A stretch of 58,678 nt of DNA, taken from the NCBI GenBank assembly GCA_903847095.1, contig CAINCQ010000039.1, forward strand, positions 1-58,678, read 5' to 3'. The translations under genes were made by a program, and so were the position numbers. Source of the DNA: an uncultured bacterium (lineage in GTDB: Bacteria > Patescibacteriota > Minisyncoccia > Minisyncoccales > UBA5738). The notes under the pieces were generated by a model. The model saw only the letters and a program-made list of their open reading frames with translations. It had not been told where the DNA came from and did not search any database. Shown piece after piece: positions 2,934 through 45,237 of the stretch; positions within the stretch are counted from its first letter, which is position 1; the number at the start of each line of letters is the position of its first letter.

Positions 2934-4613
2934 ATGCCGTATATTACCGCTTCACGGCTTTATGATTTTCTCCAATGCCCTCATCGGGTTTGGAGGGACA
3001 TTTACGGGCCGCTTGAGGAGAAATCCGAAGAAACCAATCCATTCGTCCGGCTTTTGTGGGATCGGGGCGTAAACCACGAAGACGCTATTCTGGCGAAACT
3101 GGGAGATTTCTTGAATTTGGAAGAAGGGTCGATCGACGAACGGTTCGGAGAAACAATGGAAGCGATGAAAAGCAAAGAACCTTTGATTTATCAAGGGGTT
3201 TTGAAATACGATAATTTGCTGGGAATACCCGATATTCTAAAAAGATCGCCCGATGGCGTTTATATACCCATTGATATCAAATCCGGCGCCGGGTTTGACG
3301 GTATCGACGAAAAGGAAGGCGGCGCGGGGAAACCGAAAAAACATTACGCGGTTCAGCTTTGTTTGTATGGCGATATTTTGAAAAAGCTTGGTTTTGCCGA
3401 TTCCATTCGCGGGGGAATAATAGATATTCGCGGCAGTGAAATCGAGTACGACCTATTGTCGCCGATGGGCGGACGAACTACGGAAACCTGGCTTGATTAT
3501 TATGAAAAGACAAAAGAACAAGTTGAATCTTTGGTAAACGATCGCGAAAAAACGTTGCCCGCCGTTTGCGGCGTTTGCAAATTATGTCCCTGGCACGATT
3601 CTTGCGAAAAGTGGTGTAAAGAATCAAAAGACCTAACCACTGTTTTTTGTCTTGGGAGAAGCTTTCGCGATAAAATAAATCAGGATTTGCTTATTGGCGG
3701 CATCGATGATTTTTTGAACATTGATGTTGGCGAAACAATGAAGCTAAAGGAAGCAACGAAATTATCAGGCGACCCTTTTTTTCTTCGCGGAATCGGCGAA
3801 AGCAGTCTTCAAAAATCGATCAATCGGGCGAAAATATTATATCAAACGAAAAAACCGGTAATTTACCGGCCAATTTATTTTCCGAAAACCCGATACGAAC
3901 TGTTTTTTGACATCGAAGATGACCCGACGCGGGAATTCGTTTATTTGCACGGGGTTTACGAAAGAAACGGCGCCAAAGAAAGATTCCGGGATTTTTGCGC
4001 GAAAGAATTTTCCGCAGCGGCGGAAAAAAACGCGTGGCGCGATTTTTGGGAATATGTTAAATCGTTGCCCCAAAATGATTTTTCGGTTTACTATTATTCC
4101 GCCCACGAAGAAACAACTTACAAAAGATTGCAAAAGCGCTATTCCGACGTAATCACAGCCGAGGAACTGGAAAATTTTTTTAACAATCCAAACGTAATCG
4201 ATCTTTACGGAATTATCCAAAAACAGACCGATTGGCCGTCCGGAAGTTATTCTTTGAAGGCATTGGCGTCATATTCGGGTTTTCATTGGAGAGACGAAAC
4301 GCCGTCGGGATCTTTGTCGATCCAATGGTTCAATGATTATTTGGAAACAAAGAATGAATCAACATTAAAGAGGATTTTGGAATACAACGAAGATGATTGC
4401 AAGGCGACAATGGCGCTAAAGGACAAGCTAGAAAAAATGAGTGGTAAGATGTTCCCAAAGTCATCCCTTTGGCGAGGATGTTATCCGGCGACTCGCAGTG
4501 ACCGCGGGAAACCAAGCTCCGCAGTGGCAAGACCACTGCTAAGCCAGCAGTGGTCTTGCCACTGCTGGCTTTTTTTGGTTCTTATGCTATTATTTTTTCA
4601 AAATTATAATTAG
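2934..4613 (+). CDS. TM0106-family RecB-like nuclease (PD-(D/E)XK plus RNase H-like 3'-5' exonuclease domain)
   Basis: ITASRLYDFLQCPH, GIPDIL, PIDIKS, QLCLY, CxxCPW, FFDIE, SYSLK and YNEDDC motifs; last ~50 codons run across the REP cluster. Confidence 0.85.
   Translation: MPYITASRLYDFLQCPHRVWRDIYGPLEEKSEETNPFVRLLWDRGVNHEDAILAKLGDFLNLEEGSIDERFGETMEAMKSKEPLIYQGVLKYDNLLGIPDILKRSPDGVYIPIDIKSGAGFDGIDEKEGGAGKPKKHYAVQLCLYGDILKKLGFADSIRGGIIDIRGSEIEYDLLSPMGGRTTETWLDYYEKTKEQVESLVNDREKTLPAVCGVCKLCPWHDSCEKWCKESKDLTTVFCLGRSFRDKINQDLLIGGIDDFLNIDVGETMKLKEATKLSGDPFFLRGIGESSLQKSINRAKILYQTKKPVIYRPIYFPKTRYELFFDIEDDPTREFVYLHGVYERNGAKERFRDFCAKEFSAAAEKNAWRDFWEYVKSLPQNDFSVYYYSAHEETTYKRLQKRYSDVITAEELENFFNNPNVIDLYGIIQKQTDWPSGSYSLKALASYSGFHWRDETPSGSLSIQWFNDYLETKNESTLKRILEYNEDDCKATMALKDKLEKMSGKMFPKSSLWRGCYPATRSDRGKPSSAVARPLLSQQWSCHCWLFLVLMLLFFQNYN
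4521..4568. repeat. REP doublet upstream of RAYT; second REP plus T-tract forms an intrinsic terminator
   Basis: gcagtggcaagaccactgc followed by inverted gcagtggtcttgccactgc; 47/48 identical to 5394-5441; followed by ttttttt. Confidence 0.9.
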
Positions 4614-4631
4614 CAGTGGCCTTGCCACTGT
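4613..4631. repeat. Single REP between a TATAAT (4605-4610) and the RAYT start codon
   Basis: gcagtggccttgccactgt, hairpin cagtggc-ctt-gccactg. Confidence 0.85.
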
Positions 4632-4643
4632 TTGACTATTCTT

Positions 4644-5381
4644 ATGTCTCAAAGAAAAGAAGAATTTATAATTGGGGAAATCTATCATATAACCGTTCGC
4701 GGGGTCGATGGGCGGCCGATTTTCATGGACGGAGAGGATGATTGGCGAATGGTTTTTTCGCTCTATGAATTTAACACAACGGAATTGGTAATAATTCGCA
4801 AACAAAGAGAAAAGAGGTTGAAATACAAAGAAATGATCCGCAGTGGTCTTGCCACTGCGGAGCTTGAAAGGCGGATGAAGGAAGACAATAGGGATAAGCT
4901 GGTGGAAATTTTGGCGTTTGTTTTTATGCCCAATCATGTCCATCTGTTGTTGCGGCAAATAAAGCCAGGAGGAATCAGCCTTTTTATGCAAAAATTAGGC
5001 TCGGGTTATCCGCGGTATTTTAACAGCCGGTATGAGCGAAAAGGACATTTGTTCCAAGATAAATTCGCCTCCAGCCATATTTCCGGAAATGATTATTTAA
5101 AGACGGTATTTGTGTATATTCACACCAATCCCATCTCGCTTGTTGAACCGCGATGGAAAGAAAAAGGCGTAGAAAATCCGGAAAATGCCATCACGTTTCT
5201 TGAGGGATATCGGTGGTCTAGTTATCTTGATTATCTGGGAAAAAATAATTTTCCCGCGCTGACAGAACGAAGTTTTTTAAACGGAGTATTTAGAGATCAA
5301 AAAACAATAAAAGAATTCGTTGATTCATGGATCAGATGTAAGTCTATAACTTGCATAAATAACAGATTCAAACAGGGATAA
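4644..5381 (+). mobile_element. REP-associated tyrosine transposase (RAYT, Y1_Tnp / IS200-IS605 TnpA superfamily)
   Basis: YHITVRG, MPNHVHLL (HUH), HLFQDKF, YIHTNP and YRWSSY motifs; flanked by REP doublets. Confidence 0.9.
4840..4858. repeat. REP embedded in frame in the RAYT CDS
   Basis: gcagtggtcttgccactgc is identical to 4547-4565 and lies within the codons for RSGLATA. Confidence 0.9.
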
Positions 5382-5393
5382 GTTGTTAATCCA

Positions 5394-5441
5394 GCAGTGG
5401 CAAGACCACTGCTAAGCCAGCAGTAGTCTTGCCACTGCTGG
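5394..5441. repeat. REP doublet downstream of RAYT
   Basis: Direct repeat of 4521-4568 with 1 mismatch. Confidence 0.9.
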
Positions 5442-5551
5442 AGTGGGGCTAAGCGCGCGGTTTTGGCTATTGAAAAAGGGGCGGGGGGCAGCTATATTAT
5501 TCATATGGCGTGTTGTGTGTTTTATTCCGGCCTCTGTCCGGGTGGTTTGGT

Positions 5552-6917: not shown

Positions 6918-9089
6918 ATGTCCATATTAAAAGCGATCTCCAGGGGAAGTATTTATTTGCTGGTTTTTTTAACTCCATTGTTTTTTTCCCCGCTTACCCA
7001 AAATGTCCTTGATTTTCAGAAGCAGACGTTGTTCTTGGTAATCGCTTTATTGGGCCTGATGGGTTGGGCAAGCGACGCGCTGATCTCCAAAAAACTGGTT
7101 TTTAATTTTAACCTTGCCAGCGTGGCAGTGGTGGCGGTAATGCTGGCTACGCTTATTTCCAGCCTTTTCTCGCTTTACAGCTATGGCAGTCTATGGGGTT
7201 TGCCGCTGGATATCTCATCCAGTTTTCTGACCGTAACGGGGTTTGTGCTGTTTTATTTTCTGGTCATAAATCTTTTTTCCAAAGATGAGCTTGGTAAGTT
7301 GCTATTTACGCTCGTCGCGTCGTCTTTTGTAGCCGCGCTTTACGGGATTTTACAACTTTGCGGCCTGTTTTTGATCCCCTTTGACTTTGCCAAAGTGAAT
7401 TCTTTCAATACGGTGGGGTCGGTCAACGGGTTGGGTCTGTTCCTGTCCGTTGTCTTGGTCGCGGTTTTTTCCCTGGTTTTTTCGGAAAAAGACAAGAAAA
7501 AAATGGGTCTTTTCGCCCTTTTTGGCGCCGTATTGTTCCTTTACCTGATCTTGATAAACTTTTTGGCGGCGTGGATCGTGTTGGTTATCGGATCGCTGGT
7601 CATTTTTATCCAAAGTTTTGTCGACCGGGATTCGTTTTTCCGCGGAAAGACTGTCGCGATCGCTTCGTTTTGCTTGCTGTTTTTGTCGCTGATCTTCGTC
7701 GCCGTTGACATTTTCGCGGGTGATTTCGTCGGCGATATCTATAAAAGTCTTCCCCAGACACCGGTGGAGATCTCGCTGACCAACAAGACTTCCTGGGACG
7801 TTACTGTCTCGACATTAAAATCTTCGGCAAAGAATTTGATCCTTGGCTCCGGTCCCGGAACCTTTGTTTACGACTATTCCAGATACAAGCCCGAGGTGAT
7901 CAACCAGACGAATTTCTGGAGCGTTAGGTTTGGAACAGCTTCGGACGAGATATTGGGAAGATTGGCTACGGTCGGGATTCTGGGTATCCTTTTTTTGGCC
8001 GCGCTCATCGGTTTTATAGCCGTTAAAGGCTTTAAAATGCTGAACGAGGATCGGGAGGACAAGGAATTGGTTATCACTTGCTATGCTTCATGGCTGGCCA
8101 TTGTGGCGGCATTGTTTTTCTATCCGTTCAATTTTGCCCTTACCTTCCTTTTCTGGCTGCTTTCCGCTTTAATCATCGGATTTGATGAAGAAAAAAAGAG
8201 GGTGATCGAATTTTCGCTTGGTTCCAAGGCCGCTTACGCCGCGCCGTTATTGCTGGTCGTTGTGCTGGCCTTACAACTTGGGATTATTGTCTGGGTGGGA
8301 AAACGTTATTTCGCCGAAGTAAAATATTTGCAGGCCATGCAAGCTTTGCGAAAGCCGGATTACCAAGGTGCCGTAAATGATCTTAGCCTGGCGATTAATA
8401 GCACGGGATCCGCTCAAGATAATTATTTGAGGGATCTTTCCCAGGTTTATCTTGCTTGGGTGAGCGATGAAATAGCTAAGAGCACCGATCAGAAGAAAAC
8501 ATTGGAAACGATTGCCCCGCTTATGGGCCAAGCGGTTGAAATAGCCAAGGTCAATACGGATTCGGTGAATGGGAATGACGCCAACAATTGGGCGGTAAGG
8601 GGTTATATTTACCGCGAGCTTATCGGAGCGGTGAAAGATGCCGATTCCTGGGCGGTAACGAGTTACAAGAGGGCTATCGATCTGGAGCCGGCCAGTTCGT
8701 ATTTTTACGTGGAACTGGCCCAGGTTTACATATTAAAAGAAGATTTAGGCGCGGCAACAGAGAGTCTTTTGAAAGCGATAGAGCTGAATCCTAATTATTC
8801 CAATGCCCGTTATTACCTTGGCTTGATATACGACAAACAAAACAAAAAAGACGAGGCGATCGCGCAATTCGAAACTTTGACCCGGCTCAATCCCGATAAC
8901 AAAGATATCGCAACCATTCTGGAAAATCTGAAAGCGGGAAAACCGGCATTCGGGGAACAGGCTCAAGCTCCGGCGCCGGATTTGAACGCTCCAACCGGTT
9001 CAAATGTCAGTACTTCTGTTCCCGCGGAGAACCCGGCTATATTGCTACCTAAAAATGGAGAGCCGGCGAACAATGTACCGGTCAAATAA
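6918..9089 (+). CDS. Polytopic membrane protein (O-antigen ligase-like) with C-terminal TPR repeats
   Basis: About 12 TM segments, ILGSGPGTF loop, TPR-like repeats (AIELNPNYSNARYYLG). Confidence 0.75.
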   Translation: MSILKAISRGSIYLLVFLTPLFFSPLTQNVLDFQKQTLFLVIALLGLMGWASDALISKKLVFNFNLASVAVVAVMLATLISSLFSLYSYGSLWGLPLDISSSFLTVTGFVLFYFLVINLFSKDELGKLLFTLVASSFVAALYGILQLCGLFLIPFDFAKVNSFNTVGSVNGLGLFLSVVLVAVFSLVFSEKDKKKMGLFALFGAVLFLYLILINFLAAWIVLVIGSLVIFIQSFVDRDSFFRGKTVAIASFCLLFLSLIFVAVDIFAGDFVGDIYKSLPQTPVEISLTNKTSWDVTVSTLKSSAKNLILGSGPGTFVYDYSRYKPEVINQTNFWSVRFGTASDEILGRLATVGILGILFLAALIGFIAVKGFKMLNEDREDKELVITCYASWLAIVAALFFYPFNFALTFLFWLLSALIIGFDEEKKRVIEFSLGSKAAYAAPLLLVVVLALQLGIIVWVGKRYFAEVKYLQAMQALRKPDYQGAVNDLSLAINSTGSAQDNYLRDLSQVYLAWVSDEIAKSTDQKKTLETIAPLMGQAVEIAKVNTDSVNGNDANNWAVRGYIYRELIGAVKDADSWAVTSYKRAIDLEPASSYFYVELAQVYILKEDLGAATESLLKAIELNPNYSNARYYLGLIYDKQNKKDEAIAQFETLTRLNPDNKDIATILENLKAGKPAFGEQAQAPAPDLNAPTGSNVSTSVPAENPAILLPKNGEPANNVPVK

Positions 9090-19938: not shown

Positions 19939-19974
19939 AAAAAAACGACCCCGCATTCAGCGGGGTGTTTTTTT
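19939..19974. terminator. Bidirectional intrinsic terminator between recA and rpsR
   Basis: A-tract, accccgc-attca-gcggggt stem, T-tract. Confidence 0.75.
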
Positions 19975-29533: not shown

Positions 29534-29589
29534 GAAAATCAAAAGTAATTTTTTATTGTTCTACGGGTAAGCCCCGGGAGCATAAAATG

Positions 29590-29680
29590 TAGCCAGAGGC
29601 TACCTTCCCGCATCCTGCGGGAAGAAATGAGGAGGACTTCCGCCCCGCAGGATGCGGGGGAGGATACTTCCTCTGGCCGA
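29590..29680. repeat. Nested palindrome cluster with two CCCGCA-(GGA/TCC)-TGCGGG hairpins inside a gccagagg...cctctggc stem
   Basis: 29604-29624 cttcccgcatcctgcgggaag; 29643-29659 ccccgcaggatgcgggg. Confidence 0.8.
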
Positions 29681-29732
29681 CAGGCGTGGTTTAAGGCTAC
29701 GTCGTTCGAAAAGCTTTTGGAAAATCAATATT

Positions 29733-31700
29733 TTATTTCCAGACCCGTTTTTCTTTTAAATACCAATTTTGGATGCTGGTAAAACGCTTCGAGGGATCAA
29801 CGAGGATCCCGGTGCCGATTCCTTTTACTCCCGATGTCATATAGTTGTAATTTTGGTTATACAAGAATACCGCGGGAGAATCTTTGATGAGCAGGTCCTG
29901 GAAAGCTTCGAGCTTTTTGGCCCGTTCCGTTCCGTCGGTCGTTTCGCGAATCTCTTTTAAAAGTTTATCACAATCGCTGTTTTCGTACAAAGACAGGTTC
30001 AATCCCGGATCGACGACTTGGGTCGAATGCCAGAAGGGGTAGGGATCGGGGATCGAACCCAAAACTTCCCCGAACAAAAGGATCTGGTAGTTCCGGGGCT
30101 TGATTACATCCCGCTCCAAAGTGGAAATGTCATAACTTTGGACCTCGATTTTGACGCCAATCTTTTCCCATTGCGCTTTCAGGGAATTCGCGACACTCAT
30201 CAGAACAGGTTGATTTACCGTGGCGATCGTGAATTGGAGCGGGGTATTTTCTTCGCCGGAGGGGAAACAGACGGCGTTAAGTTTGATCCGCGTCGTTTTG
30301 AGCGCTTCCCCGGTCGGTAGGGTCAGGTTGGCCGGGTCCAGGATCTCGGATCGGTATTTTTCTTGGAATTTGGAAACGGCTTCTTTGGTCTGCGGTCCGT
30401 AGGTTCCGCTTGCTTCAAGGTCGGGTGCCACTTCTTTCTGTAGGCATTTTTGCAACTCCTTGATATCGGCAGTGGCCGTACTTCCCGCTTTCAGGTCCTT
30501 ATTGAATTGGAATGCCGGTTGTTTTTCCACGACTTTGACCCGCATACCGTCGTTTCCGGTTTTGTAGCCGGCATTGTCGAGTAATTCTTGGGCCTTGGCC
30601 GGGTCATAATTATAAACCGATTGAGGGTTTTGGTAATTAAACAGGAAGGGCAGGATTGGCGAATCCACGATCGTTCCCTTGCCATTCAAGTTTTTTTGCA
30701 GGATCTCGTTCTTGTCGGTGGCGTAATTCAGGGCCTGCCTGACAGCCGCTTCGCCCAAAGTTTTGGCGGTTTGGCTGTTGAGGAAAGCGGCGAAATAGCG
30801 CGGAAACAAGAAAACATTGGCCACGGATCCCTTGTAGCGGACGTCAGCGGTTGTTTCGTCCGCTAAATTCGGGGAGAATCCCTGGATAACGCCTCTCTTG
30901 AACGCGGCGACCAAGCTGTCGTAATCGTTAAAAAACATGAACGTGAATTGTTGCAAGTAAGGCTTTTTCGAATAATATCCGGGGTTCTTTACCAAGTCTA
31001 TGGAGGTTATTTCTCCGTCCTTGGTTTTGTTAACGCTTTTCATCATGAACGGACCCGATCCCACCGGGTCGAGATTGAAAGGCGAGAGCGCGAAATTGTC
31101 GGCCGAAACATTCTCCCAGAGATGCCGGGGAATGATTTTTAAAGTGCAGTTTTCCAGAAAAGAAGAGTAAGGATTTTTCAATGTCAGGCGCAAGCTCGTA
31201 TCGGATATTTTTTCCGCCGATACGCCCAGCCATCTTGCGCGCAGCGGGCTTTTGTAAGCCGGATCGGAAATCGTCTTGATGGTATAGATCACGTCGTCGG
31301 CCGTGATTTTTTGGCCATCGGACCAATAAATATTGTCTTTTAAAATAAATTCGTAGTTTTTTCCGTCATCGGTGATCTTATAATCCGAAGCGAGGTCGGA
31401 CACTATCCGTCCTTTTTCGTCGTATTTCATGAGGCCGGAATATAAAAGTTCAACAATATCGCGGTCGATATCGTATGATTCGGAAAATACCGGATTCAAA
31501 AACCGCGGAGAGCCGATCTCCCCTTCGGTAAAAATGCCTTTTTCGTCCGGCATGGCAACAGTATTGTTAAGGTATAAATGGGTCGTAAGAACCGAAAAAG
31601 AGCCGATGGCGCCGATAGCGAGAGCAAGCAGGACCGCTTTTTCCTTTCGGGTGAGAATTTTAAAAAGTTGCTTCCACTGCGGGAAAGTTGGAAATGTCAT
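29733..31700 (-). CDS. Family-5 (OppA/DppA-like) ABC solute-binding protein with inserted peptidoglycan-binding domain
   Basis: WSDGQKITADDVIYT, PVGSGPF, VRQALNYATDK; insert DIKELQKCL...GTYGPQTKEAVSKFQEKY. Confidence 0.85.
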   Translation of the reverse strand: MTFPTFPQWKQLFKILTRKEKAVLLALAIGAIGSFSVLTTHLYLNNTVAMPDEKGIFTEGEIGSPRFLNPVFSESYDIDRDIVELLYSGLMKYDEKGRIVSDLASDYKITDDGKNYEFILKDNIYWSDGQKITADDVIYTIKTISDPAYKSPLRARWLGVSAEKISDTSLRLTLKNPYSSFLENCTLKIIPRHLWENVSADNFALSPFNLDPVGSGPFMMKSVNKTKDGEITSIDLVKNPGYYSKKPYLQQFTFMFFNDYDSLVAAFKRGVIQGFSPNLADETTADVRYKGSVANVFLFPRYFAAFLNSQTAKTLGEAAVRQALNYATDKNEILQKNLNGKGTIVDSPILPFLFNYQNPQSVYNYDPAKAQELLDNAGYKTGNDGMRVKVVEKQPAFQFNKDLKAGSTATADIKELQKCLQKEVAPDLEASGTYGPQTKEAVSKFQEKYRSEILDPANLTLPTGEALKTTRIKLNAVCFPSGEENTPLQFTIATVNQPVLMSVANSLKAQWEKIGVKIEVQSYDISTLERDVIKPRNYQILLFGEVLGSIPDPYPFWHSTQVVDPGLNLSLYENSDCDKLLKEIRETTDGTERAKKLEAFQDLLIKDSPAVFLYNQNYNYMTSGVKGIGTGILVDPSKRFTSIQNWYLKEKRVWK

Positions 31701-31768
31701 TAGTTGGTTGGCGATATACCCCGTACGCCGTGCGTCGGGGTTTTAAGTCAAGAGGATACTTTCTTTGG

Positions 31769-31785
31769 CCCCGCAGGATGCGGGG
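31769..31785. repeat. 17-bp palindrome ccccgcaggatgcgggg
   Basis: Identical to 29643-29659 and to the reverse complement of 44689-44705. Confidence 0.85.
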
Positions 31786-31812
31786 AACAACATTCGGAAA
31801 ATATATAATTGA

Positions 31813-32034
31813 TTACTGCCAAACCAGATTCATCACGGCCAAGGCCAAGAATAATCCGGCTACCGCGATCGTTGCCCAAAATATTTTCTTTTGGATACCG
31901 CGCTGGGAGGTATAAGAACTGCTTTGGTCCTGTCCGAAGGCCGAGCCTAAAGCGGTGCCTCTTTGTTGGAGGAGAATGAGGATCATTAGAATCACAGAGA
32001 CTACGATTTGAGCAATGGCGATATTATTATCCAT
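31813..32034 (-). CDS. secG: Preprotein translocase subunit SecG
   Basis: Two TM helices around ILLQQRGTALGSAFG; RGIQK. Confidence 0.88.
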   Translation of the reverse strand: MDNNIAIAQIVVSVILMILILLQQRGTALGSAFGQDQSSSYTSQRGIQKKIFWATIAVAGLFLALAVMNLVWQ

Positions 32035-44610: not shown

Positions 44611-44644
44611 ATTATTTAAATGGATCTTTTATAGAAACTGTTCT

Positions 44645-44732
44645 TGGCGGAGGGGGCGAGATTTGAACTCGCGATACCTTTCGGCATACCCCGCATCCTG
44701 CGGGGCGCACTCGGCCGCTATGCGACCCCATT
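44645..44732 (-). pseudogene. tRNA-Ser duplicate with replaced anticodon arm and broken acceptor stem
   Basis: Matches 44759-44843 except that the 17-nt anticodon arm is replaced; 5' end is AATGGGG instead of GGAGGGG. Confidence 0.85.
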
Positions 44733-44758
44733 CAAGGGTATTGTATGGCAACTGTTCT

Positions 44759-44846
44759 TGGCGGAGGGGGCGAGATTTGAACTCGCGATACCTTTCGGCA
44801 TACACGCTTTCCAAGCGTGCGCACTCGGCCGCTATGCGACCCCTCC
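44759..44846 (-). tRNA. tRNA-Ser(GGA)
   Basis: ggagggg/cccctcc acceptor stem, G73-CCA, anticodon arm cacgc-ttGGAaa-gcgtg, long variable arm, GTTCAAATC. Confidence 0.95.
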
Positions 44847-44857
44847 GCAGAGAACAG

Positions 44858-45103
44858 TTAGCGTTTTGAAATTAGATTTTTAAAAGCGATGCCGCCCTTA
44901 TACGATTTAATTTCTTTTTCTCTCTTCATTGACGCCTTTTTATTATTGAATTCTTCGCTGTAAATCAATTTCCAGGGTCTTCCTAATTTCGTTGAGCGAC
45001 TGGAACCGCGACTATGAGCTTCCAGCCTGTTGGCGATGTTGGATGTGTAGCCGATATAGTATCTATTGCTTTTTTGGCTTTGTAAAATGTATATATAATA
45101 CAT
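44858..45103 (-). CDS. GIY-YIG nuclease family protein (stand-alone, 81 aa)
   Basis: MYYIYILQS...YYIGYT...RLEAH...PWKLIYSE...REKEIK. Confidence 0.9.
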   Translation of the reverse strand: MYYIYILQSQKSNRYYIGYTSNIANRLEAHSRGSSRSTKLGRPWKLIYSEEFNNKKASMKREKEIKSYKGGIAFKNLISKR

Positions 45104-45237
45104 TATCGCGATTCTCTCCAATAATGTACGTATCATAGTAAAATATGGGTAATTTTTCAAGGTTTTTGAGGAATTTAGCGGATTTTGTTTTTGTTTGAAA
45201 TCTTGTCATCCGGCTCAATTTGATTTAAAACTAAGGA

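Follow-up and report, generated by a model that had tools for sequence, protein, structure and literature searches.

A small GIY-YIG nuclease cassette with a hairpin-bearing pseudo-tRNA lodged at a tRNA-Ser(GGA) gene of an uncultured Minisyncoccales bacterium

Partial duplicates of the 3' part of a tRNA gene are the classic mark of integrases. In E. coli, head-to-tail tandem repeats, each of which carries part of the tRNA (its 3' end), lie downstream of tyrT, and we know of neither a nuclease gene nor a hairpin substitution in these repeats. The Ssn enzymes are single-domain GIY-YIG nucleases of about 94 amino acids that act on single-stranded DNA (PMC11893778, Chenal et al. 2025). There they are described as binding the single-stranded DNA of a hairpin repeat (NTS/SRM) and as cutting a few nucleotides upstream of it, their genes are flanked by hairpin repeats, and the enzymes are reported to be inactive on RNA (PMC11893778). 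SegB is a free-standing GIY-YIG homing endonuclease encoded in the tRNA gene cluster of phages T4 and T6, which cuts double-stranded DNA at a 27-bp site containing the T-psi-C motif (PMC2330249, PMC13096335). According to the second of these reports, the nuclease activity of SegB brings about, through recombination, the tandem amplification of a segment that contains tRNA genes, and in phage T6 the amplified tRNA genes next to the GIY-YIG nuclease defeat a tRNA-cleaving defence (PMC13096335). Among open-access papers and bioRxiv preprints, no description was found of small GIY-YIG cassettes with hairpin-substituted pseudo-tRNAs. Here, we analysed a 58,678-nt stretch of DNA, hereafter the window, from an uncultured bacterium of the order Minisyncoccales (genome G000). 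Lodged at the tRNA-Ser(GGA) gene of this window, we find a small cassette, whose downstream end is formed by a 211-bp tRNA feature.

On the minus strand, the cassette has the order tRNA promoter, 16-nt tRNA stub, GIY-YIG gene, intact tRNA-Ser(GGA) and hairpin-bearing pseudo-tRNA, the last of which will be referred to as copy A (Table 1). The promoter-like element is probably the promoter of the tRNA, which would now drive the nuclease gene too. In the nuclease, residues Y5, Y16, R26, H30 and E62 are invariant in an alignment of 14 homologues. Its Pfam matches, to PF01541 and to the overlapping T5orf172 model, are confined to residues 1-67, and no separate DNA-binding domain was matched in Pfam. 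NCBIfam has no family for this protein, nor for the NTS-linked proteins. The hairpin of copy A sits 156 nt on the 3' side of the nuclease stop codon. There are three GIY-YIG genes in G000, namely the cassette nuclease, a UPF0213-like gene on contig C41, and uvrC.

Table 1 Features of the cassette and of the dispersed repeat, in window coordinates.
Feature	Position	Strand	Evidence or remark
Promoter-like TTGAAA-17-TATGAT (10 of 12)	45132..45160	-	Conserved with G001
Stub GGAGAGAATCGCGATA, tRNA-Ser 5'-end remnant	45104..45119	-	16 nt similar to tRNA nt 1-15; in G001, a longer 5' fragment with the hairpin takes this place
81-aa single-domain GIY-YIG nuclease gene (stop included), immediately 5' of the intact tRNA	44858..45103	-	Pfam PF01541, E=1.1e-16
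Leader of the intact tRNA, complementary to the trailer 44750-44758	44847..44859	-	Inverted-repeat search, fold
Intact tRNA-Ser(GGA)	44759..44846	-	ARAGORN; Rfam tRNA 53.5 bits; cloverleaf fold; CCA encoded, 7-bp acceptor stem
Direct repeat, upstream unit: intact tRNA nt 4-76 + CCA + 9-nt trailer	44750..44843	.	Repeat search
20-nt spacer separating the two repeat units	44730..44749	-	
Pseudo-tRNA (copy A): tRNA-Ser nt 4-76 + CCA	44645..44733	-	ARAGORN, repeat alignment
Direct repeat, downstream unit	44636..44729	.	84/94 identical; missing in the strain of run X6
17-nt hairpin CCCCGCAGGATGCGGGG occupying the anticodon-arm slot of copy A	44689..44705	-	Alignment, motif search
Dispersed modular repeat, copy	29563..29725	+	Exact 17-mer at 29643-29659; variant TCCCGCAGGATGCGGGA at 29606-29622, minus strand
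Dispersed modular repeat, partial copy	31700..31813	+	Exact 17-mer at 31769-31785

ARAGORN reports both the intact gene and copy A as tRNA-Ser(GGA). The two repeat units, of 94 nt each, follow one another with a period of 114 nt and differ at 10 positions. All 10 mismatches lie within the 17-nt anticodon arm, which is CACGCTTGGAAAGCGTG in the intact gene and CCCCGCAGGATGCGGGG in copy A, so that 10 of 17 positions of the arm are changed while 77 of 77 positions outside the arm are unchanged. The original prediction, made from the letters of the window, had described this 94-bp direct repeat with a 114-bp period, the confinement of the differences to the anticodon arm, and the replacement of the arm by a hairpin of a palindrome family, and in these respects it was accurate. 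The arm of copy A has been exchanged as a block, and the replacement is a hairpin from a dispersed family. Copy A retains the CCA and the 9-nt trailer. Acceptor nucleotides 1-3 are gone, with mismatches at these three positions, and the loop reads CAGGATG, hence position 33 is A and position 37 is T; the predicted retention of CCA and the predicted loss of three acceptor pairs and of U33 are thus found in the alignment.

Of the two tRNA-Ser copies, the intact gene is the sole one to pass the Rfam tRNA model (cut-off 29 bits). Copy A has no hit to that model; its best match is to tRNA-Sec, with 20.7 bits, under the cut-off of 47 bits. Three features of functional tRNAs, a 7-bp acceptor stem, U33 and a purine at position 37, are missing from it. 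In the centroid fold of copy A, the D, hairpin, variable and T arms are kept and the acceptor helix is absent. Folding of the whole 225 nt gave nothing beyond what the duplication implies. Copy A does not work as a tRNA, and any action of it would be at the level of DNA. Copies of this kind deserve a pseudo-tRNA flag in annotation, where ARAGORN gives copy A the label tRNA-Ser. The leader and the trailer of the intact gene (44847-44859 and 44750-44758) form 9 + 2 pairs, which lengthen the acceptor helix.

The window stretch is present in public sequencing runs from several studies. In run X4, a 144-nt contig covers 44636-44779 with 0 differences, and in run X1 a 93-nt contig covers 44687-44779, also with 0 differences; both span the hairpin copy and the intact gene, and they come from two studies. 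Such exact bridging contigs mean that the duplication is not an assembly chimera, the check that had been proposed with the original prediction. In run X6, which belongs to a third study, a 2276-nt contig from a strain about 97% identical to the window (13 differences in 436 nt) joins 44635 to 44750. In the strain of X6, the intact tRNA is thus present with the same flank downstream, and copy A is missing. Since the 114-bp unit is found in the X1 and X4 contigs and is missing in the X6 contig, it is polymorphic in nature; these comparisons use Logan contigs, not reads, and rarer variants may exist. A second joint in X6, 44860 to 45114, would delete the nuclease ORF, and with one side of only 30 nt it is a weak hint. 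The metatranscriptome run X17 gave no contig across the two tRNA copies, which carries no weight for or against their expression, and a single contig on the nuclease ORF (44920-45117), which may be DNA carry-over. At position 45103, the strain of X6 and X17 has T>C, which changes the ATG of the nuclease to GTG.

A DNA search of 60 relatives gave matches in 37 of 61 genomes (that of the window included), mostly to the tRNA alone. Matches of the tandem type were found in G001, which is of the same genus, and in G013, which is of a different genus. G001 has a 71% identical ortholog of the nuclease in the same place and with the same promoter. On the 5' side of this ortholog there is a tRNA-Ser 5' fragment of about 85 nt, which is broken in the variable arm and whose anticodon arm consists of the same hairpin with a 29-nt insert. 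On the 3' side, the intact tRNA precedes an array of tandem units (tRNA nt 7-76), which continues into the contig end. Five further units are found at a second contig end, where a plain 17-mer arm alternates with a longer arm, and the longer-arm units have an extra 17-mer and another hairpin inserted in the T loop. The G001 units are further degraded, with a D-stem deletion and T-loop insertions. Because array sequence stands at two contig ends, it was probably the array that interrupted the assembly; it has at least five units. The two pseudo-tRNA-Ser arrays, which both reach contig ends, are located at L021:2200-2784 and L022:3620-3780, and the two alternating unit types give a higher-order period of 242 nt.

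In G013, a diverged pseudo-copy lies on the 3' side of the tRNA, and no GIY-YIG gene was found within 1.5 kb of it. Its hairpin has the opposite orientation, with the loop CATCCTG. The original prediction had stressed that the exchanged arm keeps GGA in register. This view did not survive the comparison: the same hairpin is inverted in G013, which makes the retained GGA of copy A a coincidence, and the pseudo-tRNAs of other genomes have other hairpins, of 16-30 nt. Of 19 tRNA-Ser(GGA) loci from other genomes, a hairpin pseudo-copy is present in two (G001 and G013), a hairpin-free 3' duplicate in one (G057) and a nuclease gene in one (G001). In G000, G001, G013 and G065, the pseudo-units start at tRNA nt 4-9, 20-24 nt ahead of the hairpin.

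Of the 151 genomes of the order, 80 have homologues of the nuclease. Twenty-nine non-self GIY-YIG loci were fetched. A tRNA is located within 250 nt at 17 of them, where about 1 of 29 would be expected by our own estimate from tRNA density, and the other 12 lack one; the related genomes are kin, and counts across loci are therefore not independent. Partial copies of the neighbouring tRNA (E<=1e-4) are held by six of the 17 tRNA-adjacent loci (L024, L025, L030, L033, L039 and L043), and in four of these six a GC hairpin that is not of tRNA origin abuts the partial copy. G065, G138 and G134 belong to three other families, and in all three the nuclease gene is at tRNA-Ser(GGA). In both G065 and G138, the locus comprises a 5' fragment with a hairpin, the GIY-YIG gene, the intact tRNA-Ser(GGA), and 3' units with a hairpin, while G134 has the 5' fragment only. 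The hairpins are of the type CCCCGCC-N2-3-GGCGGGG in G065, where this type occurs three times, two of them in the cassette, and TCCCGCG-type double hairpins in G138. At locus L043, the order is intact tRNA-Gly, nuclease gene, hairpin, and tRNA-Gly nt 43-73. The cassette layout thus recurs in other families, with other hairpins and other tRNAs. Comparable CPR cases beside GIY-YIG genes, for which a search had been suggested, exist at G001, G065, G138 and G102-type loci.

G001 has further paralogues of the nuclease, and all five that were examined follow a tRNA gene (tRNA-Glu, Lys, Leu, Phe or Gln) at a distance of 127-308 nt. A different hairpin, joined to the cognate tRNA at its 3' end, is common to three of them, which are 49-72% identical to one another. 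At L183, L184 and L185, this second hairpin (ATGGTGA..ACCAT) is joined to the T-loop/acceptor 3' part of tRNA-Lys, tRNA-Leu and tRNA-Phe, and a search of G000 did not find it, with 1 weak hit. The pairing of nuclease and hairpin is not exclusive, as the paralogue behind tRNA-Lys has a hairpin of the CCCGC type on its upstream side and a different one on its downstream side. Between tRNA-Glu(CTC) and a GIY-YIG paralogue of G001 (L182:742-1025), there are three tandem repeats of about 100 nt, each with a CCCGCTTTGCGGG hairpin.

The 17-mer hairpin of copy A is found exactly at three places in the window, 29643 (+), 31769 (+) and 44689 (-). When up to two mismatches are allowed, the window has five sites, compared with 0.06 expected, and 0 of 100 shuffles reached five. 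The 1.35-Mb genome has 4 exact sites and 18 sites at up to two mismatches, and the 17-mer can be regarded as a repeat family, as the original prediction had assumed. Its identity at 29643 and 31769 was also correctly predicted. The palindromes there had been called free, which they are not; they are modules of a dispersed repeat of 100-200 nt that has many copies on further contigs. In the dispersed repeats, no named Rfam family was found at gathering thresholds. The core CCCGC-N3-7-GCGGG gives 102 strand-hits in the genome against 27.8 +/- 9.3, which corresponds to 51 sites against about 14 expected, and some of these sites are terminators. The two copies of the dispersed repeat in the window bracket a gene for a family-5 solute-binding protein (29733-31700, minus strand), and both run antisense to their flanking genes. 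At 19949-19965, a 2-mismatch relative, CCCCGCTGAATGCGGGG, is located between an A run and a T run, and it looks like a bidirectional intrinsic terminator, not a family member.

At up to one mismatch, the 17-mer occurs 10 times in G001, with 5 occurrences in the array, and once in G013, in the pseudo-tRNA only. It is absent at this threshold from G005, G006 and G009, none of which has a GIY-YIG gene within 1.5 kb of tRNA-Ser(GGA). In this comparison, the hairpin goes along with the nuclease. In G001, the 260 nt that lead up to the ATG of the tRNA-Lys-linked GIY-YIG paralogue match the dispersed repeat of G000 at 23 places, which include 29563-29725 and 31786-31813. This match, which abuts the start codon, ties the dispersed repeat family physically to GIY-YIG genes. 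A link between palindromes and tRNA anticodon arms had been foreseen, and it exists, but it runs via the GIY-YIG nuclease cassette next door, which the original prediction had named only as a help for searching.

G000 has two further tRNA genes that sit between parts of themselves. At C14:8699-8915, an intact tRNA-Ile(UAU) (8760-8835) lies between halves that are 100% identical to it, a 5' half of nt 1-38 (8699-8736) and a 3' half of nt 36-75 (8876-8915), with the break at the anticodon/position 37. The flanks of the inner gene form a 14-nt inverted repeat, a leader/trailer arrangement comparable to that of the tRNA-Ser. This locus may be the gene-less relic of a cassette. At C2:3945-4216, an intact tRNA-Ile(GAU) (4008-4082) has a 5' fragment of itself (nt 5-35) on one side and a 3' part on the other, and an insert of 45 nt divides the T loop of the 3' part. 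Neither of these two loci has a hairpin or a GIY-YIG gene. A 90-nt tRNA-Asp reported by ARAGORN at C16:39496 was rejected as a false call.

The best explanation of these observations, to which we assign a probability of roughly 0.65, is that a cassette is lodged at tRNA-Ser, that the hairpin of copy A would be the single-stranded-DNA site of the nuclease, and that nicks would drive recombination among the tRNA-derived repeats. The intact tRNA-Ser(GGA) within the cassette would keep the host supplied. The hairpin is the putative binding site of the neighbouring nuclease by analogy with Ssn and NTS/SRM, and nicks beside it would promote recombination among the repeats, with the tRNA sequence serving as homology arms for the spread of the cassette. 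Binding of the hairpin as single-stranded DNA would in this way lead, through nicks, to duplication, conversion and spread, and copy A would have no function as RNA. Nick-promoted recombination would account for the variable number of units (0, 1, at least 5), and for copies that stay identical to the resident tRNA outside the arm; together with the tRNA homology arms, it would account for the patchy spread of cassettes among tRNA genes.

A further-reaching version, which we regard as doubtful, describes a minimal element that homes to tRNA genes. The nuclease of about 80 amino acids would recognise its own hairpin in the anticodon-arm slot of a cloverleaf formed by single-stranded DNA, and it would nick about 20 nt upstream, where the pseudo-units begin (tRNA nt 4-9). 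With the tRNA sequence as homology arms, the cassette would place copies of itself in empty tRNA genes and multiply its flanking sequences. Hairpin modules without a gene, released from such cassettes, could then seed the REP-like intergenic repeats of CPR genomes.

Alternatively, an ordinary tandem duplication of the tRNA may have been followed by the unrelated insertion of a REP-like palindrome in the dispensable copy, with the GIY-YIG gene as a bystander. The membership of the copy A hairpin in a dispersed intergenic family would fit such a course of events, as would the G013 pseudo-copy, which has no adjacent GIY-YIG gene. The genome also has four RAYT-like Y1-transposase genes (PF01797). 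However, the hairpin of copy A flanks 0 of these 4 genes, and two of the four are flanked by other palindromes. The same account is also opposed by the three-part layout, which recurs beside GIY-YIG genes with different hairpins and at different tRNAs, by the two nested tRNA-Ile duplicates of G000, which are free of hairpins, and by the dispersed repeat that abuts a GIY-YIG start codon in G001. We consider this course of events unlikely. One of the Y1-transposase ORFs is in the window (4517-5443; open frame 4614-5381, PF01797 E=3.8e-13), where it is bracketed on both sides by its own AGCAGTGGCAAGACCACTGCT-type palindromes as a REPtron-like unit, distinct from the copy A hairpin; the other three are on contigs C22, C34 and C12.

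It is very unlikely that copy A gives a functional tRNA-like RNA that would be transcribed together with the tRNA and would serve as a decoy for tRNA-targeting enzymes or as a scaffold that presents the hairpin as RNA. Its D, variable and T arms are intact and the same as those of the parent, CCA is present, and no terminator-like site was found between the intact tRNA and copy A. The defence-defeating tRNA amplification beside a GIY-YIG nuclease in T6 offers a precedent (PMC13096335). Nevertheless, copy A has lost the acceptor stem and fails the tRNA model, in the units of G001 the D stem is damaged and the T loops are interrupted, the hairpin is reversed in G013, and the unit is missing in the strain of X6. 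Moreover, Ssn enzymes are reported to be inactive on RNA (PMC11893778). The suggestion of a tRNA-like decoy, which was part of the original prediction, is left unsupported by the absent acceptor stem, the absence from the approximately 97% identical strain, and the further degradation in G001. That copy A is an attL/attR-type scar left by site-specific integration of an integrase-borne element is hardly credible: partial 3' tRNA duplicates are a hallmark of integrases and G057 has a hairpin-free one at tRNA-Ser(GGA), but the repeats here are separated by just 20 nt, a scan of 6 neighbouring ORFs (41.6-48.1 kb) gave no recombinase domain, the duplicate covers nt 4-76, and the nuclease gene of G001 has tRNA fragments on either side.

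If the reading of a tRNA-Ser-lodged cassette whose nuclease acts on the hairpin is true, hairpin-specific GIY-YIG nucleases for single-stranded DNA would gain a genomic home and life style as tRNA-gene cassettes. The reading would also account for pseudo-tRNAs of a recurrent kind, which tRNA finders report as genes, and it would offer a source of the REP-like hairpin families in CPR genomes. In addition, the cassettes would provide natural nuclease/hairpin pairs for the single-stranded-DNA tools that are sought in the work on Ssn.

The locus can be compared with four known systems. Like REP/BIME elements with their RAYT (Y1/HUH) genes, it has short GC-rich palindromes in modular intergenic clusters and a nuclease-type gene flanked by its own palindromes; unlike in those elements, the copy A hairpin adjoins a GIY-YIG gene and not a Y1-transposase gene. 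The pseudo-tRNA arrays resemble the repeats of E. coli tyrT in that head-to-tail units stand behind a tRNA gene. With SegB, the locus shares a GIY-YIG gene that adjoins tRNA genes and a patchy presence among related genomes. SegB is, however, a multi-domain phage protein, whereas the nuclease described here has 81 amino acids, matches Pfam through its catalytic domain only and is cellular (CPR), and hairpin-substituted pseudo-tRNAs are not described for SegB in these reports (PMC2330249, PMC13096335). The tandem amplification driven by SegB can nevertheless be taken as a working model for the variable pseudo-tRNA arrays.

In sequence, the nuclease is 27-33% identical to two NTS-flanked GIY-YIG proteins, with 33% over 67 amino acids for one of them; in the alignment, its identity is 27% to both NTS-linked proteins and 28% to a UPF0213-like paralogue. 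It is no closer to the NTS-linked proteins than to the UPF0213-like paralogue or to PDB 1zg2 (33.5 bits). In the genomes of N. lactamica and N. mucosa, the small GIY-YIG genes are UPF0213-like only, without dRS3/NTS flanks. At least 120 records contain the exact 28-nt Neisseria NTS motif; they span very diverse phyla, with Dehalococcoidia, Planctomycetes, Nitrospirae and a Peribacteria MAG among them, and only 2 of 120 fetched stretches with this motif have a small GIY-YIG gene.

The differences from Ssn concern mainly the setting of the hairpins. Here they are inside pseudo-tRNA scaffolds, while tRNA is not mentioned in the main text of PMC11893778. The conserved GTC motif upstream of the Ssn palindrome is absent here, and the published SRM pattern is not enriched in the genome (3 against 3.6 +/- 1.8 in 20 first-order shuffles). 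The similarities are in the architecture. Both systems have a small single-domain GIY-YIG protein of about 80-95 amino acids, and the catalytic Tyr/Tyr/Arg/His/Glu are conserved here. GC-rich hairpins flank the gene, on the downstream side in G000 and on both sides in G001, G065 and G138. The hairpin of the cassette is also dispersed in the genome, on a modest scale of few copies compared with the hundreds in Ssn systems. The CCCGC/GCGGG stem is common to the copy A hairpin and NTS, and the NTS-flanked GIY-YIG genes that were fetched have hairpins with the same CCCCGC/GCGGGG stem. By analogy, the nuclease of the tRNA-Ser cassette and its hairpin probably work like an Ssn enzyme and its hairpin repeat.
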